NCBI RefSeq assembly: GCF_000186885.1
Contig: NC_014972.1
Coordinates: 480,001-512,000, forward strand
Origin: Desulfobulbus propionicus DSM 2032
GTDB lineage: Bacteria; Desulfobacterota; Desulfobulbia; Desulfobulbales; Desulfobulbaceae
Reading direction: 5' to 3'
DNA: 32,000 nucleotides
Both the position numbers and the translations under genes were made by a program. The notes below the pieces were generated by a model, which ran no database searches, was not told where the DNA came from, and was given only the letters and a program-made list of their open reading frames with translations. Each line of letters starts with the position of its first letter. Positions within the stretch are counted from its first letter, which is position 1. Below, in pieces: positions 10,625 through 20,182 of the stretch.

Positions 10625-11755
10625 ATGCAAGATAAAGTATTGCTGGAAGAACGAGCGAAGTTGATCGAACGGAACAAGGAACTTTCTTGCCTGTATGAAA
10701 TTGCCAAGATCGTTGCTCATACGGAAACCACGGTTGCGCAGGTTTTGCAGGCGATAGTTGACGTGGTGCCTTCGGCATTCCAGTTCCCCAATCAAGTTTA
10801 TGCACGAATCGTCATCGATAACAGGGTATTCATGACTGAAGGATTTTCGGAATCCGATTATGTGATCCGTGACAACCTCCAGATGGCCCGCCCTTCACAC
10901 GGTGTCATAGAGGTTTTTTACCATAGACGGGACGGGGCCGAACTGGAGGGAGAGGATGGATTCTTCCCTGAGGAGCGCAAATTGTTGCAGGCTATAGCCC
11001 ACCAGGTTTCCCTGATGATCAATATCAAGCTGGCCAACGAACAACGATCTCAATTGGAGGATCAACTGCGACATGCTGATCGCCTTGCAAAGGTGGGACA
11101 GTTGACGGCAGGGGTGGCTCATGAGCTCAACGAACCGCTGGCCAGCATTTTGGGGTTCGCCCAGTTGGCGACGAAAAAAATCGACGCGCCGGTCCACGTG
11201 GCCCGCTACCTCGACAAGATCATTCAGTCCACGCTCCACGCCAGGGAAATCATTAAGAAAATGATGTTGTTCAGTAGTCCTGTGCCGAATCACAAGGCCA
11301 AAATAGATCTCAACGCAGTACTTGCCGAGGGGATGGCCTTCATCGAGCCCCGTTTCGCAAAGGTTGACATTCAGTTCAAGTCAACCTTTGATCCAGAACT
11401 GCCACCCATCCTGGCGGATGCATCGCAGATCACTCAAGTATTGATCAACCTCGTGATCAATGCCATCCACGCCATGGACAGCATGGGGACGCTCACCTTG
11501 CGTACAGCCCGTGCTGGCCGGTTGGTGCAGATGGTCGTGCAGGATAATGGCATCGGTATGGACCAACAGACGCTGGAACAAATCTTCCTGCCCTTTTTCA
11601 CCACGAAGGATTTAGATCATGGAACAGGTCTGGGGCTGTCGGTGGTTCACGGGATTGTCTCGGCTCACGATGGCACGATCGACGTGAAGAGCGAGATCGG
11701 GAACGGGACAACCTTTACGATCACTTTTCCAACGTATAAGGGCAAGGACCAGTAG
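10625..11755 (+). CDS. Cytoplasmic sensor histidine kinase (canonical HisKA + HATPase_c)
   Basis: 376 aa with no obvious TM segments. H box LTAGVAHELNEPLASILGF, N box QVLINLVINAIHAM, G1 DNGIGM, F/G2 LPFFTTK ... GTGLGLSVV. The N-terminal sensor region is of unknown type. Confidence 0.85.
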   Translation: MQDKVLLEERAKLIERNKELSCLYEIAKIVAHTETTVAQVLQAIVDVVPSAFQFPNQVYARIVIDNRVFMTEGFSESDYVIRDNLQMARPSHGVIEVFYHRRDGAELEGEDGFFPEERKLLQAIAHQVSLMINIKLANEQRSQLEDQLRHADRLAKVGQLTAGVAHELNEPLASILGFAQLATKKIDAPVHVARYLDKIIQSTLHAREIIKKMMLFSSPVPNHKAKIDLNAVLAEGMAFIEPRFAKVDIQFKSTFDPELPPILADASQITQVLINLVINAIHAMDSMGTLTLRTARAGRLVQMVVQDNGIGMDQQTLEQIFLPFFTTKDLDHGTGLGLSVVHGIVSAHDGTIDVKSEIGNGTTFTITFPTYKGKDQ

Positions 11756-11837
11756 CCCCTCTTCAATGCGGCAGAGCGAGTCCGGTTGTTGACAATCGCT
11801 TGCTGTGCATGAGAGGAACCACCCGGAGGGGAGTGAG

Positions 11838-13205
11838 ATGGAGAGAAAAAAACAAGCGCAACCAAGTCTATTCAGGATCCTCGTCGTCGACGATGCCGAA
11901 GATGCCCGTGAGGTGATTCACACCCATCTCGAGGATGCAGGCTATATGGTGCGGACCTGTGCCAGCGTGGCAGAAGCGTTGCTGGCCGTTGAGTCGTCCG
12001 TTTTTGACATAATCATCACGGACCTGCGCATGCCCAAGGCCAGCGGTCTAGAACTGATTCAACATGTTCGCAACACTCTGGAGGATATCGAGGTCATGAT
12101 GATCACGGGCTATCCATCCATTGAGGGCGCTATCGAAGCCATCAAAACTGGCGCCGAACACTATCTGCCCAAACCCTTCACGGAACGTGAGCTGTTGGAG
12201 GCTGTACGAGCGATTGTTGAAAAGCTGGTCCGCAAACGCCTGGCACATGGCCAATCGATTTCCGGTCAGACGTATGGAATTGTTGGTGAATCAGCTGCAA
12301 TGCAGCATGTGTTCAAACTCATCGATAAGGCTGGCGACAACACGGCAACCGTGCAAATTTCCGGGGAGAGTGGCACGGGTAAAGAGCTCGTGGCGCGCGC
12401 CATCCATTATGTCGGGAAACGTCGATCCTCTCCCTTTGTCTCCGTCAACTGCACGGCAATACCAGAGAACCTGATCGAGAGCGAACTCTTTGGTCATGTG
12501 AAAGGGGCCTTTACCGGAGCTGGAACTGCCCGCAGCGGATTTTTTGAAATAGCTGACGGGGGGACTCTCTTCCTGGATGAGATTGGCGACGCTAGTCTGG
12601 CCATGCAAGGGAAGTTATTACGAGCCATTCAGGAGAAGGCCATTTACAAGGTTGGCTCCAGCAGACCTCTGCACATCGACACCCGTCTGATCTGCGCCAC
12701 CAACAAGAATCTGAAGCAATTGATCGAAAAGGGGTTGTTCAGAGAAGATCTGTATTACCGGATCAACGTGATCGATATTTCTTTGCCTCCCTTAAGGGAA
12801 CGGGAGGATGACTTGTTGCTTTTAATGAATCATTTTCGGGCGAAATTTGCCAAGGACACTGGACGTCCGGCTCCTTTTTTCAGTGATGAAGCATTGCGAC
12901 AGCTGATGCTCTATCACTGGCCGGGAAATGTGCGTGAACTCGAAAATTTAGTGCAAAAACTGGTTCTTATATGCGAGGGGGACACAATTGAGCTGGTGGA
13001 TCTTCCGTCGACGTTGAAGCCCGCTGTCGGCGTGGGCAAGCGATTGGATCGCAGTCTCGCCGAATATGAAGCGGAATATATCCATGAGGTTTTGGGCAGT
13101 GTGCACGGTAATAAAACCAAGGCAGCTGCCATACTTAAAATTGACCGTAAAACGTTGCGAGAAAAAATAAGCAATCGGTATCAAAAAAATGAGATTAAGT
13201 CGTAA
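11838..13205 (+). CDS. NtrC-family sigma-54-dependent response regulator (REC-AAA+-Fis HTH)
   Basis: Preferred ATG at 11838 (GGAGGGGAGTGAG upstream). REC domain (ILVVDDAEDAREV ... DIIITDLRMPKASG), AAA+ domain ([23 protein letters not shown]), C-terminal HTH (NKTKAAAILKIDRKTLREKI). Directly downstream of the HK gene. Confidence 0.9.
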   Translation: MERKKQAQPSLFRILVVDDAEDAREVIHTHLEDAGYMVRTCASVAEALLAVESSVFDIIITDLRMPKASGLELIQHVRNTLEDIEVMMITGYPSIEGAIEAIKTGAEHYLPKPFTERELLEAVRAIVEKLVRKRLAHGQSISGQTYGIVGESAAMQHVFKLIDKAGDNTATVQISGESGTGKELVARAIHYVGKRRSSPFVSVNCTAIPENLIESELFGHVKGAFTGAGTARSGFFEIADGGTLFLDEIGDASLAMQGKLLRAIQEKAIYKVGSSRPLHIDTRLICATNKNLKQLIEKGLFREDLYYRINVIDISLPPLREREDDLLLLMNHFRAKFAKDTGRPAPFFSDEALRQLMLYHWPGNVRELENLVQKLVLICEGDTIELVDLPSTLKPAVGVGKRLDRSLAEYEAEYIHEVLGSVHGNKTKAAAILKIDRKTLREKISNRYQKNEIKS

Positions 13206-13224
13206 CGAAATAAATGAAGGCAAC

Positions 13225-13256
13225 AAAAAAGGGGTTAGAGAGTAATCTCTAACCCC
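13225..13256. terminator. Bidirectional hairpin terminator (NtrC-type gene on +, ancestral tRNA-Arg terminator on -)
   Basis: A6 followed by GGGGTTAGAG-AGTAAT-CTCTAACCCC (13231-13256). On the minus strand the stem is followed by T6. A near-identical hairpin follows the intact tRNA at 20071-20096. Confidence 0.6.
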
Positions 13257-13265
13257 TTGAATGTA

Positions 13266-13312
13266 TGGCGCGCCTGGAGAGATTCGAACTCCCGACCTAC
13301 GGATTCGTAGTC
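13266..13312 (-). repeat. Displaced 3' fragment of tRNA-Arg(ACG): att core direct repeat
   Basis: The 47 bp TGGCGCGCCTGGAGAGATTCGAACTCCCGACCTACGGATTCGTAGTC are identical base for base to 20106-20152 (tRNA anticodon loop through CCA). Sequence diverges on both sides. Confidence 0.9.
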
Positions 13313-13430
13313 TCTGGGCTGGCCTATTTACCAAGAATAACGAATGATAATTATATTGACTAATCAATATCATAAGCATAAGGTGGAGCATAACGAACGA
13401 TAACGAAAAACACCCAAATTTACCCCAGAA

Positions 13431-13449
13431 GGTAGCACCGAGGTAGCAC
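13431..13449 (+). repeat. GGTAGCACCGAGGTAGCAC 19-mer (putative integrase arm-type sites), int-proximal arm
   Basis: The identical 19-mer recurs at 20041-20059. Further GGTAGCAC copies lie at 13464-13471 and 13543-13550. ATAACGAA occurs three times at 13337-13344, 13390-13397 and 13400-13407. Confidence 0.6.
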
Positions 13450-13495
13450 GGAAACTGCCCATCGGTAGCACCTAATCAAGCCGGGAGGTCCAGAA

Positions 13496-14659
13496 ATGGC
13501 GCGGGAAGAGGTCAACTTCACCAAGGCGGCAATCGAACAGATGGTAGCACCGGAAGGGGGAAATCGCCGGTACATATACGACGCGAAAGAATCCGGCCTG
13601 CTGGTACAGATCACCGAGAGCGGGCGTAAAACCTTCCAACTCTACAAGAAACACATGGGCAAGCCTATTCGTGTGACCATTGGCACCTTCCCAGAATTGA
13701 CCGTGGAGCAGGCCAGGAAGAAGGCACGGGAAATCAAGGTATCGTTGACCAATGGCGAGAACCCGAACGACAAGCTAAAGCAGCAGCGGCAGGAAATGAC
13801 CTTTGCCGACCTGTTTGAGATATACCTTGAACGGCACGCTAAGCCCCGCAAGAAAACATGGCGGGAGGATGAAACCTATTTCAAGCGGCACCTTGCCAGC
13901 TTTGGGAAAAAGCGGCTGTCTACGATCACGAAAGGGGACATTGCCGCGATTCATTCCAGCATCGGCAAAGACAGACCTACCCACGCGAACCGGGTTCTTG
14001 CCCTTGTTTCAAGTATCATCGGCAGGGGGATTGAATACGGCCTTTATGAAAGCCTTAACCCCTGCCGGGGGATCAAGAAGTTTTCCGAGCAGGCGCGGGA
14101 CCGCTTCCTTTCTGGCGATGAACTGGCAAGGTTCTTTCAAGCACTGGAACAGGAGCCCAACAGCACAGCGCGGGACTTCTTCCTTGTCGCCCTGCTGACC
14201 GGTGCCCGGCGGGCAAACGTCCTTTCGATGCGATGGTCTGACCTTGACCTTAAGGGCCAAATATGGCGCATTGCTGAAACCAAGAACGGCACCCCGCAAA
14301 ACGTCCCCCTGGTCGGCCCGGTCCTTGAGATCCTGCAAGACCGCCGGAAAGCCACCTCTTCCTTTTTCGTCTTCCCCGGACCCGGCAAGACCGGCCACCT
14401 CGTTGAACCCAAGAAAGCATGGCAGCGGATATGCCAGGCCGCCGGGATCAAGGGCGCACGCATCCATGACCTACGGCGGACCATGGGAAGCTGGCAGGCC
14501 AAAACCGGCGCATCGTTGCCAATCATCGGCAAGAGCCTGAACCACAAGAGCGCATCCACCACGAGCATCTATGCACGGCTTGACCTTGACCCGGTACGTA
14601 CAGCCATGGAGACGGCGGCAGCGGCCATGCTTGATGCGGGTGGCAGCGGGAAGAAGTAA
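13496..14659 (+). CDS. int: Tyrosine recombinase/integrase, P4-type (DUF4102 arm-binding N-terminus)
   Basis: 387 aa with RBS GGGAGG at 7-nt spacing. N-terminal segment YIYDAKESGLLVQITESGRKTFQLYKK ... LTVEQARKKAREI. Catalytic region with ALLTGARRANVLSMRWSDLD, HDLRRTMGSW and SIYARLD (Arg/His/Tyr pattern). Confidence 0.9.
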   Translation: MAREEVNFTKAAIEQMVAPEGGNRRYIYDAKESGLLVQITESGRKTFQLYKKHMGKPIRVTIGTFPELTVEQARKKAREIKVSLTNGENPNDKLKQQRQEMTFADLFEIYLERHAKPRKKTWREDETYFKRHLASFGKKRLSTITKGDIAAIHSSIGKDRPTHANRVLALVSSIIGRGIEYGLYESLNPCRGIKKFSEQARDRFLSGDELARFFQALEQEPNSTARDFFLVALLTGARRANVLSMRWSDLDLKGQIWRIAETKNGTPQNVPLVGPVLEILQDRRKATSSFFVFPGPGKTGHLVEPKKAWQRICQAAGIKGARIHDLRRTMGSWQAKTGASLPIIGKSLNHKSASTTSIYARLDLDPVRTAMETAAAAMLDAGGSGKK

Positions 14660-15099
14660 CGCTTTTGCTTTGCGGGACGACGTTGGCGTCCCCGATGATT
14701 TCCAACTGCAAGTAGGCCCGGCCAAGGCGCACATGCTTGATGCGGGTGGCAGCGGGAAGAAGTAACGCTTTTGCTTTGCGGGACGACGTTGGCGTCCCCG
14801 ATGATTTCCAACTGCAAGTAGGCCCGGCCAAGGCGCACATGCTTGATGCGGGTGGCAGCGGGAAGAAGTAACGCTTTTGCTTTGCGGGACGACGTTGGCG
14901 TCCCCGATGATTTCCAACTGCAAGTAGGCCCGGCCAAGGCGGCCATGCTTGATGCGGGTGGCAGCGGGAAGAAGTAACGCTTTTGCTTTGCGGGACGACG
15001 TTGGCGTCCCCGATGATTTCCAACTGCAAGTAGGCCCGGCCAAGGCGCACATGCTTGATGCGGGTGGCAGCGGGAAGAAGTAACGCTTTTGCTTTGCGG
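14627..15099. repeat. 106-bp tandem repeat, 4 full copies + 49-bp partial, beginning within the last 11 codons of int
   Basis: Units start at 14627, 14733, 14839, 14945 and 15051. Copies are identical apart from GCGGCC versus GCGCAC at the end of copy 3. Each unit contains the int C-terminus plus stop (MLDAGGSGKK*) and a GGGACG-N7-CGTCCC hairpin. Confidence 0.95.
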
Positions 15100-15180
15100 G
15101 GATAGAGGGCACTCGACAAGCCGCCTATCCTGGGGCGGTTTCCCCGCGATCTACACCAGGGCGCTACAGGAGCGCAGAGG

Positions 15181-15894
15181 ATGGGATTACCGGAGCCACA
15201 AAGATTTTTCATTGAAGAGTTATGTGCTCGATGGAACAAAACTCCTGAATATGTTCTTGAGCTCGGCATATCTGGAGAACTGATAATCTGGGCAGAATTT
15301 AACGATAAGTTCGCCGTGCCGGAAAGCTATATCCTGCTTTCTGATGAAGAACGAAACAGGAAATACCCCGATATTGAAGATCCATTTATGCTCCCCACAC
15401 GTTTTCTTTTCGATAAAATTGAATCACGGCCAGTAAGAAAAGAGCTTTCACTATTAAGGTTAAATTGTGGAGAGGCAACGGTTAAGCAGGTTCATTGTCT
15501 TCATGGAAGCAAAGATACCCGTATCGCGGTGGCAACCGGTACACCAGAGCCTTTTACCTTTTCACTAAAAAATCTATTTGTTCGCCTTGAAGACGTTGAA
15601 TCGTTCGAGGTGCGGCATGGTCTCACTGGCAATCAGTCTAGAGTGGACCACCAAGGCAGTTTATCTGCGAAGCGGGAAAAAACATTGTTGAAGGTAATCG
15701 GTGCGCTCCTTTCGATGAAATACCAAGCCCCAGCATATTTCAAAGGTGGGAAAGTAAATGCCACGGCTGTAGAGGATCAATTCATGCGTGATCTTGCCGC
15801 AGCCAATTTTACCACTGACGGCATCAAAGAGGGCACGATACGAAAGACCATTATCAAGCAAGCCTTCGAGGCAATAGGGGAAAACAAGGAATAA
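15181..15894 (+). CDS. Hypothetical protein, AT-rich orphan cargo gene of the island
   Basis: 237 aa with RBS AGGAG at 8-nt spacing. Sampled lines are 35-42% G+C versus ~67% in a sampled line of the primase gene. I recognise no family. The N-terminus (RFFIEELCARWNKTPEYVLELGISGEL) could be a small HTH-like module. Confidence 0.6.
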   Translation: MGLPEPQRFFIEELCARWNKTPEYVLELGISGELIIWAEFNDKFAVPESYILLSDEERNRKYPDIEDPFMLPTRFLFDKIESRPVRKELSLLRLNCGEATVKQVHCLHGSKDTRIAVATGTPEPFTFSLKNLFVRLEDVESFEVRHGLTGNQSRVDHQGSLSAKREKTLLKVIGALLSMKYQAPAYFKGGKVNATAVEDQFMRDLAAANFTTDGIKEGTIRKTIIKQAFEAIGENKE

Positions 15895-15951
15895 TAACAG
15901 AAAAATACACTTTTTCGCCGGGCGGTTTCTCAATATTCGTCCACATATACA

Positions 15952-15996
15952 GGCATTTGTCACTTTGGCAAATGCCTTTTCTTTTTGGCAAATGCC
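15952..15996 (+). promoter_or_regulatory. Operator-like repeats upstream of the alpA-primase module
   Basis: TTGGCAAATGCC occurs at 15965-15976 and 15985-15996 (20-bp period). The second copy forms the palindrome TGGCA-AA-TGCCA. The inverted half GGCATTTG lies at 15952-15959. Confidence 0.4.
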
Positions 15997-16074
15997 ACTA
16001 TTCAGGAAAAAATAACCGTACTTTCGCCACATGAACGACGGATTACCCGTCAACCTGAACTATGAGGTGAAAGA

Positions 16075-16290
16075 ATGGAACTGATCCAAAAAACGAGAAC
16101 AACAAGCAATCTCCTTCCCCCAGAAGAAGCGGCGGCCATGCTGGGCGTTACCGTCGGCACACTCCAAGTTTGGCGGACCACCCGCCGTTACCCCCTTAAG
16201 TACGTCAAATCCGGTCGGCTTGTCCGTTATCGGCTGGAAGACATTCAAGCGTTCATCGAATCCCGGACCGTTTCCCCTGCGGAGGTCTGA
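16075..16290 (+). CDS. AlpA/excisionase-type HTH DNA-binding protein
   Basis: 71 aa with RBS GAGGTGA. HTH_17/MerR-like motif LLPPEEAAAMLGVTVGTLQVWRTTRRYPLKYVKSGRLVRYRLEDIQAFI. Confidence 0.8.
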   Translation: MELIQKTRTTSNLLPPEEAAAMLGVTVGTLQVWRTTRRYPLKYVKSGRLVRYRLEDIQAFIESRTVSPAEV

Positions 16291-16293
16291 ACG

Positions 16294-16413
16294 ATGGCGC
16301 GGAAAAATCGTCAACGTGTCAAAGCCATAATCTTTTGGCTGGGCGTCCGTGGAGTGCTGCCCGTTGCCATAGTTGAGTGGATTATTCGTAAAGGGGGGAT
16401 GAAGCATGATTGA
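16294..16413 (+). CDS. Possible 39-aa small membrane peptide (not in the ORF track)
   Basis: ATG at 16294 is preceded by GGAGG at 8-nt spacing. Product MARKNRQRVKAIIFWLGVRGVLPVAIVEWIIRKGGMKHD has a basic N-terminus and a hydrophobic core. It overlaps the primase start by 8 nt. Confidence 0.3.
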   Translation: MARKNRQRVKAIIFWLGVRGVLPVAIVEWIIRKGGMKHD

Positions 16414-18862
16414 TTTTGAGCGAGTCAACAGCGCGGCTCTCTCCCATATGGAAAGTTTGTTGCCGGAATTATTACCGGGCGGGCGGATCAGTGGCCGTGA
16501 ATATCAATGCGGAGACGTGACCGGCGGTCCTGGTCGATCCATGAGCGTGAATATCGAGACGGGAAAATGGTCTGATTTTGCTGATACCGTCAAAGGTGGC
16601 GACCCGATTTCCCTTGTGGCGGCTGTCCACGGTTGCGAGCAAGGAGAAGCTGCGCGGTGGTTGGAAAGTTGGCTGGGAATTGATACCGGCAACCCCACTT
16701 CACGCAAAGAGTTTGAGGCTATGAAGGCGGAAGCGGCCAAGCGGCGGAATGATCGGGAGGCCAAAGAGCGCCAGGGGCAGCAGCAGGCGGCGGCCAAGGC
16801 AAGGAAACGATGGGAGGCGGCCCCGCCGGCGAACCCTGCCCACCCGCACCTTGCCAAAAAGAACATCAATCCCCACGGCACCCGCCAGGAAGGCGACAAG
16901 CTGCTTGTGCCTATGCGGGATGAATTCGGTGGGATATGGGCACTGCAAACCATCGGCCCTGATGGCGGCAAGCTGTTTTCCCCGGCTGGCTGTCGGACCA
17001 AGGGCCTGTATTTTTCCATTGGCGACAAACCCCAGCCGGGCGCACCGGTCTGTATCGTGGAAGGTTTCGCCACCGGCGCCGCGATCCATGAAGCCACCGG
17101 CCACCCGGTAGCCTGCGCGATGACCGCCGGGAACCTGGAAGCAGTTGCCCGAATCGTCAAGGACAAGCTACCGGGCCACCCGGTTGTTGTCTGTGGCGAT
17201 GATGACCGGAGGGACGGCACCGACAAGAACCCCGGTATCGAAGCGGCCACCAAGGCGGCCTTGGCTGTCGGCGGCCTGCTGGCCCTTCCAGGCATGGACA
17301 TAAAAAGCGATTTTTGGGACTTGCTCAACGAGCGCGGCGCGGATGCGGTGCGGGCAGCGGTAGAGAAGGCGGTACCAGCGGAGAATCAGCACGGCGGCCA
17401 GGGTGAAGCCCCGGCAGAGGATCAGGAGCGCGGACAAGAGGTAGGTGTTGACCCGGCGGCTATGGTTCAACTATTGGCGGGGTTGTCCCCTGTTGAATAC
17501 GAACTGAAACGGAAGGCGGCGGCTGAAGCCTTGGGAATCCGAGCCACTGCCCTTGACCGTGCCGTCAAGGAGGCCAAGAAAGGCCAAGGGGAAAACGATC
17601 TGCCCTTTGACGAATCAGACCCGTGGCCCGTACCGGTCAACCCGAATCACCTCTTGGCTGATATTACGGGCACCATTCAGCGGTTCATCGTCTGTTCAAA
17701 AGAGGTGGCCCACACTGTAGTCCTATGGTCTGCGATGACGTGGTTCATGGATGTGGTGCAGGTTGCCCCCTTGGCGGTCATTACCGCACCTGAAAAGCGG
17801 TGTGGCAAATCTCAGTTGTTGTTCCTGCTGGGGAGGTTGTCCGCAAGGTCGATCACTGCCAGCAGCATTTCACCGGCGGCCCTGTACCGTGCCATTGACG
17901 CATGGAGCCCCACTCTGCTGATTGACGAAGCGGACGCCTTCATGAAGGACAACGAGGAACTGCGCGGGATCATCAACAGCGGCCACACCAGGGACTCGGC
18001 CTATGTTATCCGCACTGTTGGCGACACCTTCACCCCGACCAAATTCAACACCTGGGGAGCGAAGGCCATTGCTGGTATCGGTCACATTGCCGACACGCTG
18101 ATGGACCGGGCGGTTATTCTGGAACTGCGGCGCAAACTTCCCCATGAATCCGTTGACCGGCTACGGTATGCGGAGCCTAACCTATTCCACAACCTGCGGT
18201 CAAGGCTGGCCCGGTTTGCTGAGGATTACAGCGAGAAGGTGCGCCAGGCCCGGCCGCCATTACCGGCAAGCCTGAACGACCGGGCACAAGACAATTGGGA
18301 ACCCCTGCTGGCAATCGCCATGGTTGCGGGTGGTCAATGGTTGGAGATCGGCACATCGGCAGCCTTGAAACTATCCGGCACCGAAAGCGCGGCGCAGACA
18401 ATCGGCACGGAGCTATTGGCCGACATTCAAGAGATATTCGAGGCCAGGGACACGGACAGAATCAGCACGGCGGACCTTATCAAAGCCCTATGCGAAGATG
18501 ACGAAAAGGTGTGGTCAACATACAACCGGGGGAACCCTATCAAGCCCCGGCAGCTTGCCAACAAGCTGAAAGGTTACGGCATCAGCAGCAACACGATCAG
18601 ACTCGGGATAACCACCCCCAAGGGGTTCATGCGGGATCAGTTTTCAGAAGCCTTTTCACGCTACTTGACCCCTCCCCCCCTTCCAAGCGCAACACCGCCA
18701 CAACCCTTGACTGATGGGCGTTTACCTGTTGCGGATGCAAAGCAACGTTGCGGAAACGTTGCGGATAAAAACAATGACAAGTTGTTGTTTAATCGTAATT
18801 GTTGCGGTGTTGCGGATAGAAACCCCCTCCCGAAAGATAACAAGGTTGAGGTGGAGATATGA
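16406..18862 (+). CDS. Primase/replicase: N-terminal primase-like region, Toprim domain, C-terminal DUF3631-type P-loop domain
   Basis: 818 aa. Toprim-like segment VCIVEGFATGAAIHEATGHPVACAMTAGNL ... VVVCGDDDRRDGTDKNPGIEAA. DUF3631-like C-terminus with Walker A-like APEKRCGKS and Walker B-like TLLIDEAD. Confidence 0.8.
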   Translation: MIDFERVNSAALSHMESLLPELLPGGRISGREYQCGDVTGGPGRSMSVNIETGKWSDFADTVKGGDPISLVAAVHGCEQGEAARWLESWLGIDTGNPTSRKEFEAMKAEAAKRRNDREAKERQGQQQAAAKARKRWEAAPPANPAHPHLAKKNINPHGTRQEGDKLLVPMRDEFGGIWALQTIGPDGGKLFSPAGCRTKGLYFSIGDKPQPGAPVCIVEGFATGAAIHEATGHPVACAMTAGNLEAVARIVKDKLPGHPVVVCGDDDRRDGTDKNPGIEAATKAALAVGGLLALPGMDIKSDFWDLLNERGADAVRAAVEKAVPAENQHGGQGEAPAEDQERGQEVGVDPAAMVQLLAGLSPVEYELKRKAAAEALGIRATALDRAVKEAKKGQGENDLPFDESDPWPVPVNPNHLLADITGTIQRFIVCSKEVAHTVVLWSAMTWFMDVVQVAPLAVITAPEKRCGKSQLLFLLGRLSARSITASSISPAALYRAIDAWSPTLLIDEADAFMKDNEELRGIINSGHTRDSAYVIRTVGDTFTPTKFNTWGAKAIAGIGHIADTLMDRAVILELRRKLPHESVDRLRYAEPNLFHNLRSRLARFAEDYSEKVRQARPPLPASLNDRAQDNWEPLLAIAMVAGGQWLEIGTSAALKLSGTESAAQTIGTELLADIQEIFEARDTDRISTADLIKALCEDDEKVWSTYNRGNPIKPRQLANKLKGYGISSNTIRLGITTPKGFMRDQFSEAFSRYLTPPPLPSATPPQPLTDGRLPVADAKQRCGNVADKNNDKLLFNRNCCGVADRNPLPKDNKVEVEI

Positions 18863-19212
18863 ACGCACGGGCGATTATCGAGGCGGCAGTCACTGATGGT
18901 CTGGTTGTCAATCTATCCCCCACCGGATCACTCAAGGCGATCGGTGAACAGGAAGCGGTTAATCGTTGGCGGCCACTCCTGAAGCAGCACAAGACGGAAA
19001 TCATCAACCTGTTGAGCGGAAAACCGTCTGGAGAAATGCAGGCCACCCGGCCCACCCTGCCGAACTGGTGCAACGCCAGGTGCGACCATTACCACCGGTT
19101 AGATGTGCCGGACGTGGGAACGATGCAATGGTGTTGCTGGGAGACTGATGAACGACATTGGCGGCGGGATCGGATCGACACAATGAGCAGGTGCCCGGAG
19201 AAAGAGAAGTGA
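18859..19212 (+). CDS. Hypothetical protein (TubC_N-like N-terminus, Cys/His/Trp-rich C-terminus)
   Basis: 117 aa with an ATGA overlap with the primase stop. The N-terminus LVVNLSPTGSLKAIGEQEAVNRWRPLLKQHKTEIINLL resembles the small docking-type domain often found fused to or adjacent to phage and plasmid replication proteins. C-terminus WCNARCDHYH ... WCCWETDERHW. Confidence 0.55.
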   Translation: MNARAIIEAAVTDGLVVNLSPTGSLKAIGEQEAVNRWRPLLKQHKTEIINLLSGKPSGEMQATRPTLPNWCNARCDHYHRLDVPDVGTMQWCCWETDERHWRRDRIDTMSRCPEKEK

Positions 19213-19382
19213 ACCCGGTCGAACTCGACAAGCGTCTCTCTGTTTTAGCCGTCCACCTGAAACGCCAGGGCGGCCAAGCATGGGTAACTACCGGCAAGTC
19301 GTGGCAGCACTACAAGATTGTCGATCTGGTGGAGGCCGTCGAAGAGGCACAAAAACGGATCATGAAAGAGGTGAAGAAATGA
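19209..19382 (+). CDS. Hypothetical small protein
   Basis: The ORF track opens at 19158. GTG at 19209 forms a GTGA overlap with the preceding stop. 57 aa. Confidence 0.4.
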   Translation: MNPVELDKRLSVLAVHLKRQGGQAWVTTGKSWQHYKIVDLVEAVEEAQKRIMKEVKK

Positions 19383-19549
19383 GAAAGAAAAAGCAGCAGA
19401 TACCAGCGGCAACAGTGCCCCATGTCGAGGCCCTGCGGGAAGTTGTAACGGAACAGCGGCATGGGTGGAGCAGGGAGGAGCGAAAAGCGCTATTTGATGC
19501 AATTCGGCCACTTCTGGCTATTATCTTGAGAGTTGAGGTTTCACAATGA
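19379..19549 (+). CDS. Hypothetical small protein
   Basis: The ORF track opens at 19280. ATG at 19379 forms an ATGA overlap with the preceding stop. 56 aa (MRKKKQQIPAATVPHVEALREV...). Confidence 0.4.
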   Translation: MRKKKQQIPAATVPHVEALREVVTEQRHGWSREERKALFDAIRPLLAIILRVEVSQ

Positions 19550-19650
19550 GCCCTGGAAGGTGGACACTGTTTCAACAGAATAACGAGGTGGTGGGCGCGA
19601 AATTGAACAGCCTGTGGTGGTTGTTCCATTTCCCCTCCATAAAAAGGTGA
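19546..19650 (+). CDS. Possible 34-aa peptide (not in the ORF track)
   Basis: ATG at 19546 forms an ATGA overlap with the preceding stop. Product MSPGRWTLFQQNNEVVGAKLNSLWWLFHFPSIKR. It ends 4 nt before the next gene. Confidence 0.3.
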   Translation: MSPGRWTLFQQNNEVVGAKLNSLWWLFHFPSIKR

Positions 19651-19654
19651 CGCC

Positions 19655-19858
19655 ATGAAATACACATTTGAAGAACTACTTGCCCGTCGATACTGCGGCG
19701 CAAAGACCAGGAAGGGCACACCGTGCAAGCGGTTGGATATTTACGAGAATGGCCGTTGCCCTTTGCATGGCGGCCTATCCACCGGCCCGACCACCGAAGA
19801 GGGCAAGCGATGTGCCGCGCTCAATGGGAATTGTCCCAAAAAGAAGCGGAGCCCCTGA
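19655..19858 (+). CDS. HGGxSTG domain protein
   Basis: 67 aa with motif CGAKTRKGTPCKR ... GRCPLHGGLSTGPTTEEG, typical of small Zn-ribbon-like proteins of phages, plasmids and islands. Confidence 0.7.
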   Translation: MKYTFEELLARRYCGAKTRKGTPCKRLDIYENGRCPLHGGLSTGPTTEEGKRCAALNGNCPKKKRSP

Positions 19859-19976
19859 GATGTTGGGAAATGTTAAGGTTGGTGGAGAACCAAACCCCAT
19901 GGGAACTAGAGAAAACCTGAGCCTGAAAAAGCGGAGTCCATGGGTGGTCACGAAAAGTAACGTTCTGCCTGTTTAT

Positions 19977-20011
19977 CCCCCTGACCGGATCACCGGCAGG
20001 GGATTTTTTTT
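19977..20011 (+). terminator. Rho-independent terminator at the end of the island operon
   Basis: CCCCTG(A)CCGG-ATCA-CCGGCAGGGG followed by A and then T8 (20004-20011). Confidence 0.7.
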
Positions 20012-20040
20012 GCCCTGTGGCGGCCATGATTTTTTTCAAA

Positions 20041-20059
20041 GGTAGCACCGAGGTAGCAC
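20041..20059 (+). repeat. GGTAGCACCGAGGTAGCAC 19-mer, tRNA-proximal arm of the island
   Basis: Identical to 13431-13449 and in the same orientation. Confidence 0.6.
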
Positions 20060-20060
20060 C

Positions 20061-20096
20061 AAAAAAAAAAGGGTTTAGAGAATGAACTCTAAACCC
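20061..20096 (-). terminator. Rho-independent terminator of tRNA-Arg(ACG) (island-borne copy)
   Basis: On the minus strand GGGTTTAGAG-TTCATT-CTCTAAACCC is followed by T10 (A10 at 20061-20070 on +). It is homologous to the hairpin at 13231-13256, with a compensatory base-pair change. Confidence 0.7.
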
Positions 20097-20105
20097 TTGA
20101 TTTTC

Positions 20106-20182
20106 TGGCGCGCCTGGAGAGATTCGAACTCCCGACCTACGGATTCGTAGTCCGGCGCTCTATCCAGCTGAGCTACAGGCGC
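20106..20182 (-). tRNA. tRNA-Arg (anticodon ACG), CCA encoded
   Basis: The reverse complement GCGCCTGTAGCTCAGCTGGATAGAGCGCCGGACTACGAATCCGTAGGTCGGGAGTTCGAATCTCTCCAGGCGCGCCA folds as a cloverleaf: acceptor GCGCCTG/CAGGCGC, D stem GCTC/GAGC, anticodon loop CTACGAA, T arm GGGAG-TTCGAAT-CTCTC. It closely resembles E. coli tRNA-Arg(ACG). Confidence 0.9.

Follow-up and report, generated by a model that had tools for sequence, protein, structure and literature searches.

The DNA analysed here, which we call the window, is a stretch of 32,000 nucleotides from Desulfobulbus propionicus DSM 2032 (contig NC_014972.1, positions 480,001 to 512,000), and all coordinates are given as window positions. It contains a PICI-like island of ~6.8 kb inserted at tRNA-Arg, with int, ORF237, an alpA-like gene and a primase gene, and it is within this island that the tandem array discussed below is found. 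The features of the island are as follows.

13266 to 13312, minus strand: displaced 47-nt 3' fragment of tRNA-Arg, one island end (att core), identical to 20106-20152 (direct repeat D2)
13429 to 13454, plus strand, and again at 20039-20064: AAGGTAGCACCGAGGTAGCAC repeat, a candidate Int arm-type site (direct repeat D12, 92% identity)
13496 to 14659, plus strand: tyrosine integrase gene int, 387 aa, whose last 33 nt open copy 1 of the array (Pfam Phage_integrase and Arm-DNA-bind_3; PHROG integrase)
15181 to 15894, plus strand: ORF237, the first gene after the leader (no Pfam or PHROG hit; homologs P0002-P0005)
16075 to 16290, plus strand: AlpA/excisionase-like helix-turn-helix protein, 71 aa (PHROG 66, excisionase and transcriptional regulator)
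16406 to 18862, plus strand: primase/replicase, Toprim and DUF3631, 818 aa (Pfam; PHROG DNA primase)
18728 to 18815, plus strand: candidate origin, five GTTGCGG repeats in sets of 3 and 2 around an AT-rich spacer at the primase 3' end (direct repeat D9, motif searches, layout as in PMC6092414)
20106 to 20182, minus strand: intact tRNA-Arg(ACG), the other island end (ARAGORN and Rfam)

Direct repeat D2 extends over 13222-13312 and 20062-20152, and the AAGGTAGCACCGAGGTAGCAC repeats stand near both island ends. The Logan contigs that carry the sister islands all start at window position 13283, the first point at which a 31-mer leaves the tRNA-Arg repeat D2; the alpA-like ortholog of the sister islands carries PF12728 HTH_17, and the homologs of ORF237 occupy the equivalent position in related islands. 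In Gram-negative PICIs the origin has an AT-rich stretch with a set of iterons on either side, located at the replicase gene's end or after it (PMC6092414). The island has int, an alpA-type gene, pri-rep and an iteron origin in one direction between att repeats, and it resembles the Gram-negative PICI and P4-like elements (PMC6092414) as a tRNA-integrated island of that size that encodes a tyrosine integrase, an AlpA-like protein and a primase-replicase and has an AT-rich stretch between two iteron sets. It differs in that this copy is without packaging or capsid-redirecting genes, and in that a tandem array after int is not described for the Gram-negative PICI family. That array is made up as follows.

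14626 to 15100, no strand assigned: tandem array, period 106, 4.5 copies, A(BA)4 (TRF and per-copy comparison)
14627 to 14676, plus strand: segment A, 50 nt, the last 10 int codons and stop followed by CGCTTTTGCTTTGCGGG (sequence, sister comparison and per-copy comparison)
14733-14782, 14839-14888, 14945-14994 and 15051-15100, plus strand: further A copies (per-copy comparison)
14677 to 14732, plus strand: segment B, 56 nt, ACGACGTTGG...GGCGCAC (no match in any relative or collection searched)
14783-14838, 14889-14944 (GCGGCC variant) and 14995-15050, plus strand: further B copies
14674 to 14692, plus strand: 6-bp hairpin GGGACG-ACGTTGG-CGTCCC over the A/B junction, present 4 times, every 106 bp (sequence)

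TRF found a single array in the window (98% matches, score 936), its count of 4.5 copies being read from a finished consensus built on 454 and Illumina reads. The units are laid head to tail and start at 14627, 14733, 14839, 14945 and 15051; copies 1, 2 and 4 are identical, while copy 3 differs solely at unit positions 104-105 (window 14942-14943), where GCGGCC, which is also the 6 nt preceding copy 1 (14621-14626), replaces GCGCAC. The constant period and high identity are those of a true tandem repeat far beyond chance, the 53-nt core of B alone occurring 4 times against 0 expected from shuffles. TRF and the per-copy comparison thus agree with the original prediction on the period, the five starts and the single difference in copy 3, and several of its finer points required correction. 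The fifth copy, which had been given as 49 bp, is identical over 50 nt; the duplicated block is not the int end plus ~50 bp of downstream sequence but 50 nt in all (33 nt of int and 17 nt beyond it); and the hairpin, which does exist as GGGACG-N7-CGTCCC, is not contained in the 56-bp segment as had been proposed but straddles the A/B boundary, with GGG from A and ACG from B. Because int ends at 14659, the opening 33 nt of each unit spell MLDAGGSGKK and the stop, as had been noted, and the Int protein is indeed unaffected by copy number. The long open reading frames through the array are artefacts, again as proposed, with no PHROG hits and no protein match in 5.8 billion sequences. Each of copies 2-5 does hold a 10-codon ORF with AAGG ahead of it. 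We also considered, and rejected, a reading of the repeat as a CRISPR array: all four “spacers” (B) are alike, and the “repeat” is the int 3' end.

Directly beside the array lies a conserved structured leader.

15093 to 15180, plus strand: conserved structured leader (alignments A1-A6, covariance model R1, pair counts and RNAalifold)
15094-15102/15141-15149: helix P1, forming a three-way junction with P2 and P3
15105-15107/15112-15114: helix P2
15119-15126/15133-15140: helix P3
15161-15165/15171-15175: helix P4, a hairpin over the ribosome-binding site

The structure of the leader is supported by strong covariation, and its opening 8 nt (TTTGCGGG) are the closing 8 nt of every A. A search of Rfam 15, which includes the int-alpA motif, gave nothing at gathering score in the window and nothing at E <= 10 in 14400-15400, the array unit included. 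The leader is apparently an undescribed structured RNA that precedes the first early gene of the island.

The comparison with sister islands is what carries our interpretation of the array. An Int that is 99% identical (P0006) is found on 10 Logan contigs, and in 8 of these, which are independent assemblies, the int stop and one A are followed directly by the leader, with no B. A direct comparison is offered by L031, whose identity to the window is 99.86% within int and 99.3% across 2838 nt downstream of it; L031 lacks exactly the 424 bp of (BA)4. In four loci (L029-L032) the primase gene is 98-99% identical and the array is absent, and no tandem array stands beside int in any of 43 related loci. 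Sister islands with the same int, alpA and primase have a single A and lack B, so that island family can dispense with the array. Among close relatives it is thus polymorphic, in the manner of a VNTR, as presence versus absence, with no graded copy numbers seen. All five A copies in the window carry GAT where the sister islands have GAG. The Int cluster also includes two short members (P0127 and P0129) that are unrelated peptides.

The source of B was sought widely. The original prediction had proposed searching the 56-bp segment and the whole unit against related islands; a blastn-short search with B gave no match in loci L001-L025 or in the masked window, its best hit being 13 nt long (E = 0.19), loci L001-L038 contain no exact occurrence of a 30-mer of B, and a 24-mer is absent from the viral_contigs and metagenome_contigs collections. 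A blastn search with 14945-15200, which holds one full B copy, gave no B match among phages and plasmids. Composite translations of the unit in reverse and forward frames, searched against the 5.8 billion proteins at E <= 10, returned nothing, as did an exact look-up of the 44-aa array ORF, and neither the rest of the 32-kb window nor the 44 loci nor the viral and metagenome collections contained a further copy of the unit. Two possible origins closer to hand were rejected: descent by decay from the leader or the int 3' region, to which B aligns locally no better than shuffled sequence does (p = 0.53-0.68), and an inverted 13/15 match of B (CCGATGATTTCCAAC) to int 14515-14529, which is, by our estimate, at about chance level for the neighbourhood.

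We favour, as the probable though by no means certain explanation, that the array is a very young, strain-private tandem amplification, a minisatellite with no dedicated function. The near-identical sister islands without the array argue that it is probably an ordinary minisatellite rather than an origin or a switch, and, to judge from its absence in relatives and from the missing signals, it is probably neutral. That the amplification is recent, as originally suggested, holds up both in the near-identity of the copies and in a sister island that is 99.3-99.9% identical and has no array. The sister islands show the ancestral order, in which the int stop is followed by 9 nt and then by the structured leader of the ORF237-alpA-primase genes. 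From this order a first event would have converted A to A-B-A, probably by replication template switching or by repair at microhomologies, gaining 56 nt of foreign or remote sequence and re-copying the 50-nt int end; GCGGG at the A/B junction could have served as microhomology, as could GCGGCC, which stands as the 6 nt before A in int and as the B end in copy 3. The two 50-nt A copies might then have permitted slipped-strand or unequal sister-chromatid recombination, which would have raised the 106-bp BA unit to four copies. The GAT shared by all five A copies and the single 2-nt change among the four B copies would place the amplification after the divergence of the islands. As a result of the array the distance from the int stop to the leader is greater by 424 bp, and the last A copy preserves the original sequence context directly upstream of the leader.

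Alternatively, the array might be absent from the real genome or of another copy number, having been inflated or mis-built during 454/Illumina/phrap assembly and finishing. We consider this unlikely, although some observations point towards it: B is unmatched in the public collections searched, near-identical islands are without the array, and a typical read of ~305 nt is too short to span 475 bp. The assembly of D. propionicus DSM 2032 drew on 454 Titanium data (145 Mb in about 475,000 reads of ~305 nt average), to which Illumina GAii reads and consensus “fake reads” were added (PMC3072085). However, B is novel sequence and must stem from reads, in that a de Bruijn loop or a mis-join duplicates sequence and cannot create 56 new bases. 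The copy-3 variant, moreover, provides an internal landmark ~320 nt from the unique left flank and ~210 nt from the unique right flank, both distances that 454 Titanium reads can reach. To our knowledge B is also unlike 454 or Illumina adaptor or linker sequences. The genome was declared finished after the use of Dupfinisher and PCR-based resolution of repeats (PMC3072085).

It is quite unlikely, in our view, that the units are a functional regulatory array, whether by influencing the neighbouring leader or read-through from int in cis (as an insulator, a spacer or mini-leader decoys that titrate a leader-binding factor) or as a copy-number-variable switch for ORF237, alpA and primase. Perfect 106-bp repeats are physically prone to copy-number change. 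The end of the array falls exactly at the first base of the conserved leader, with each A closing on the first 8 nt of helix P1; in the unit, TTTGCGGG is followed after 14 nt by CCCCGATGAT, an arrangement that the leader model aligns as a P1 with deletions of P2 and P3, and a 10-codon ORF follows AAGG in each of copies 2-5. The unit hairpin, which loosely mimics P1, together with this mini-ORF may therefore have an effect on the leader or on int read-through. Nevertheless, the leader model gives the units scores below zero (-1.6 to -2.0 bits, with E about 6-8 in only 533 nt), B aligns to the leader no better than shuffled sequence does (p = 0.53), and the array is conserved nowhere, the sister islands managing without it. 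The fold of the whole unit is likewise no better than that of shuffles (z = -0.2), a consensus scan of the array gave no sigma-70-like promoter or intrinsic terminator, and no sigma-54 promoter was seen by eye in the unit. The proposal of a protein-titrating decoy or a copy-number switch accordingly does not fit an array that is dispensable, with one A and no B in the sister islands.

The setting of the array within its family has a bearing on a further possibility. Mosaicism and cargo insertion recur at the int-leader junction in the Desulfobulbaceae int-alpA-primase island family: five loci (L001, L002, L010, L012 and L020) carry cargo genes between int and the leader, inserts of 0.6-1.6 kb with genes such as Fic-like or HicB/HTH, and L020 has also kept a truncated second leader. 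Some relatives carry terminase small-subunit genes, and one close int relative (L044) has a different downstream region and no leader. In L001 the int 3' end is followed by a Fic-like cargo gene, then by another int 3' end, now decayed (26 nt at 85%), and by the same leader. The original prediction knew of no equivalent at integrase 3' ends; L001 shares the A-x-A topology, so that this statement has to be tempered, although L001 does not have a tandem array. The array therefore resembles the family cargo hot spot in being an insertion at the exact int-leader junction, whereas the cargo genes are not tandemly amplified and x in the window is 56 nt of non-coding DNA amplified four times. We regard as very unlikely the reading that the array is the footprint of a specific duplicative insertion mechanism at the int stop/leader boundary that also produced the A-cargo-A' of L001, and/or that its units, which combine a P1-like hairpin, a site resembling a ribosome-binding site and a 10-codon ORF, serve as degenerate “mini-leaders” whose copy number tunes the early genes under leader control.

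Least probable of all, and only barely credible, is that the array is an origin, or an auxiliary cis region like the P4 crr to which the island primase/replicase would bind, even though it is placed between int and the replication genes and each unit has TTTGCGG, which differs by a single base from the candidate-origin repeat GTTGCGG, shares its orientation and recurs every 106 bp (~10 helical turns). That TTTGCGG lies in A as the ancestral, conserved 5' strand of a leader helix, kept for pairing as the covariation indicates; in relatives with a different leader 5' strand the variant motif is not clustered elsewhere in the island, so that the strand is not iteron-like, and we rejected it as an iteron or operator. 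The original prediction of an origin or iteron array fares no better in other respects: the unit is 59% GC without an AT-rich stretch, contains no exact GTTGCGG, and shares no sub-repeat or motif of 9 nt or more with other non-coding DNA of the island, and the islands with a 98-99% identical primase (L029-L032) have one A copy only and no B, the array thus lacking conservation alongside the same replicase. A canonical cluster of iterons and AT-rich DNA is already present at 18728-18815, and on sequence grounds the primase 3' end is the better origin candidate. The P4 crr comprises two direct repeats, each about 120 bp long, with the same iterons as ori, and it is a constant feature of P4. The array is like crr in consisting of long direct repeats in a primase-encoding satellite, away from the origin, but no exact iteron is common to the unit and the candidate origin, and islands that are 99% identical do without the array.

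The young tandem amplification that we favour has its closest parallel in the MIRUs of mycobacteria, bacterial minisatellite/VNTR loci that form a dispersed family at many loci. Like these, the array is head-to-tail, intergenic in an operon-like row, near-identical among its copies and strain-variable in its presence, with a unit in the class of tens to ~100 bp that overlaps the upstream stop codon and holds a small ORF. In contrast to the many MIRU loci, the 106-bp unit is found at one of the loci searched and its B half nowhere else in the collections covered, and the difference among strains is one of presence versus absence, not a copy-number series.

We note that the array represents a clean case in which a very recent duplication-insertion within a mobile island was followed by amplification, and that it is itself of little consequence: it is a possible strain typing marker, and it gives rise to spurious long ORFs for annotators to disregard. 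What matters more is the mosaic int-leader junction and the leader that defines it. The structured leader could be the control point of these satellite-like islands, and it is in our view the more interesting finding.

Tandem Repeats Finder (TRF) called one strong array, which spans 14626-15100 and scores 936; its 4.5 copies, with a period of 106, reach 98% matches. In a copy-by-copy comparison, copies 1, 2 and 4 did not differ, copy 3 carried two neighbouring changed bases (14942-14943, GCGGCC versus GCGCAC) and the fifth copy, of 50 nt, was identical throughout, bearing out the original prediction of a 106-bp tandem repeat from the int stop region. GCGGCC is also the 6 nt directly before copy 1. 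Given the extent of the integrase ORF, each unit opens with the last ten codons and stop of int, and the layout is A(BA)4, with a hairpin, GGGACG-N7-CGTCCC, spanning the A/B boundary:

Segment A, 50 nt: 33 nt of int plus CGCTTTTGCTTTGCGGG
Segment B, 56 nt: ACGACGTTGG...GGCGCAC

The identical 47-nt core of a 91-nt direct repeat, with copies at 13222-13312 and 20062-20152, is the 3' part of tRNA-Arg(ACG), whose gene lies at 20106-20182; this core therefore bounds an integrated element of ~6.8 kb (13313-20105), which by gene content and layout belongs with the Gram-negative PICI-like and P4-like int-alpA-primase elements. The closest relatives of its integrase are from Desulfobulbus, and all its genes are on the + strand:

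13496-14659, +: tyrosine integrase
+: ORF237, of no known family
+: AlpA/excisionase-like protein, 71 aa
+: Toprim + DUF3631 primase, 818 aa
+: a few small ORFs
18728-18815, +: GTTGCGG five times, in two sets separated by an AT-rich spacer, within the primase gene at its 3' end

Terminator-like hairpins lie downstream of both tRNA-Arg 3' copies (13222-13265 and 20062-20105) with compensatory differences (GGGGTTAGAG/CTCTAACCCC versus GGGTTTAGAG/CTCTAAACCC), so the island appears to bring its own tRNA 3' end and terminator from a related host locus. A tandem AGGTAGCAC half-repeat near both island ends (13429-13454 and 20039-20064) is a candidate for arm-type integrase binding sites. Two loci of the same int family encode terminases, a product with the large-subunit domains Terminase_6N and Terminase_3 (L039:9162-10535) and a small subunit (Terminase_2; L043:11395-11880), both with AAA_25-type replicases; some members of the family are thus satellite-like or prophage-like and carry packaging functions that the window copy is without. 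Unrelated to the array, a tRNA-Sec gene (1-92, +; Rfam RF01852, 51.4 bits) is cut by the window start.

A 99% identical relative of the integrase (P0006) occurs on ten independent Logan contigs, L029-L038. Eight of them (L029-L036) reach beyond int, and all of these have one A after the int stop, B being absent and TTTGCGGGGATAGAGGGC... coming immediately next; the remaining two end inside A, 2-9 nt short of its end, and are uninformative. One contig, L031, is the window's island minus exactly 424 bp, (BA)4: its identity to the window is 99.86% across 1394 nt of int and 99.3% across 2838 nt downstream. The recent amplification originally proposed is thereby confirmed and sharpened. Since these contigs are k-mer graph assemblies, in which a B loop would break the contig at A rather than be skipped, the absence of B from them is most likely real. 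The sister islands read GAG at a site that is GAT in all five window copies of A, so amplification came after this private substitution or homogenised it. At 18 more distant genome loci the DNA after int differs from that of the window, and TRF found no arrays next to int in related loci L001-L043.

The array, or its copy number, might instead be an assembly artefact. The data behind the genome were 454 reads with a mean length of about 305 nt and short Illumina reads (PMC3072085), but B is new sequence that requires real reads, the copy-3 variant lets reads of at least 320 nt resolve the array, and finishing included repeat-resolution steps (PMC3072085); we regard an artefact as unlikely. We take the array for an ordinary tandem duplication private to this strain, and on testable features it behaves as a bacterial minisatellite. 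Tested as an iteron origin, a crr or a CRISPR, it fails, and no further copy of the unit, such as a dispersed repeat family would have, was found in the window, the fetched loci, or the viral and metagenome collections.

We found no sign of function in the unit. Neither a sigma-70-like promoter nor an intrinsic terminator turned up in a consensus scan of the array, neither strand of the unit folded better than shuffles (z = -0.2 and +0.65), no Rfam family matched the array region at E <= 10, and no motif of at least 9 nt was common to the unit and the island's other non-coding parts. The long ORFs of the minus strand translate the unit in rotating frames, have no relatives in PHROG or among 5.8 billion proteins, and are artefacts, as had been anticipated; Int, too, is intact as expected. 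Unit and neighbourhood have just one element in common, the TTTGCGGG that closes A, ancestral because it begins the structured leader preceding ORF237. A regulatory or decoy array acting on this leader is suggested by position and by a hairpin like leader helix P1, but the leader model gives the units scores below zero and the sister islands manage without the array, making this reading still less probable than an artefact. A replication element is very improbable, since the array is GC-rich and absent from islands with the same primase, and a better candidate exists at 18728-18815, likely the island origin given that its repeat arrangement is that of Gram-negative PICI origins (PMC6092414). 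The origin, decoy and switch roles first proposed were therefore not upheld.

The states seen are ancestral U-A-D (D being the downstream, leader side) and derived U-A(BA)4-D with near-identical copies. A single duplication-insertion would have turned A into A-B-A, perhaps by template switching in replication or repair, which fits GCGGG at the A/B join and GCGGCC both at the end of B (kept in copy 3) and just before A, in int. Repeats undergoing slipped-strand mispairing or unequal sister exchange might then have multiplied the 106-bp BA unit. The GCGGCC/GCGCAC difference could have arisen once, later, or one copy could still show the ancestral junction. On balance the change is probably neutral: Int is intact, and in the last A the leader still has its original upstream sequence directly before it. 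As a whole, we consider this mechanism moderately probable. B itself had no match elsewhere in the window or in L001-L038, a B 24-mer none in IMG/VR or JGI metagenomes, the query 14945-15200 none to B in phage and plasmid records, and any open reading frame of the unit none among 5.8 billion proteins. Derivation of B from leader or int was not detectable; our favoured guess is that it possibly came from a remote place in the genome.

Segment A is tied to both its neighbours: in its 5' part it runs on from int, and its last 8 nt are also the first 8 nt of the leader. In this island family extra DNA gathers between int stop and leader:

L001 (Desulfobulbus MAG), 11310-12587: Fic-like gene, motif HPFYDGNGRCGR
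L012, L010, L020: HicB/HTH toxin-antitoxin-like genes
L002: other DNA, about 1.5 kb
L001, 11139-11164 and 12739-12764: int 3' end copies flanking the Fic-like gene

The second L001 copy, just before the leader, is decayed (26 nt, 85%, p < 0.001 versus shuffles), giving an A-x-A topology like that of the window array but without amplification. In L020 an intact leader is preceded by a truncated leader of another subtype. With its cargo and repeated int/leader remnants this junction is a hot spot of mosaicism, to which the array adds a further rearrangement, very small and then amplified. The second subtype (CACGGATAGGGC..CTGATCAC loop) lies 7-14 nt after an XRE-type HTH antitoxin-like gene ending ...FL-stop (L020:2455-2500, L012:11790-11830, L010:11880-11910). 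In L020 it is cut off after the P2 loop and fused to the intact window-type leader, an arrangement that points to recombination within the leader or beside it.

The leader, of ~88 nt, is conserved after int or cargo in 13 islands:

Window 15093-15180, +
Relatives: L001:12774-12874, L019:1435-1535, L020:2494-2592, L026:1783-1880, L027:858-958, L028:429-531, L029:1384-1482, L039:4958-5058
Divergent instances (covariance model): L012:11818-11930, L002:9120-9222, L010:11902-12017, L041:7166-7269

It forms a three-way junction, P1-P3, with invariant joints GATAG and CGAxAAG, and a fourth hairpin spans the first gene's ribosome-binding site. The divergent four retain P1-P3 by compensatory changes (P1 as CGGGGA/TCCCCG, CACGGA/TCCGTG, CAGGGC/GCCCTG and CGCGGA/TCCGCG). 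Both sides change in 15 of 25 leader pairs, 97.5% of cells are paired versus 39-57% with partners slid, and an independent run of MAFFT and RNAalifold gave the same junction, 11 of 18 pairs being compensatory. Frequent + strand G-U pairs point to a sense-strand RNA. The upstream gene's stop lies ~6-12 nt before P1 in most leaders (the gap is longer in L028 and L002), which suggests the hypothesis that terminating ribosomes may open the leader. Rfam 15 gave no match to it (window at gathering score; 14400-15400 at E <= 10), and such a leader, behind int or cargo and ahead of the first early gene in int-alpA-primase islands, is apparently undescribed. While the array itself is of low interest, the leader beside it merits separate study.
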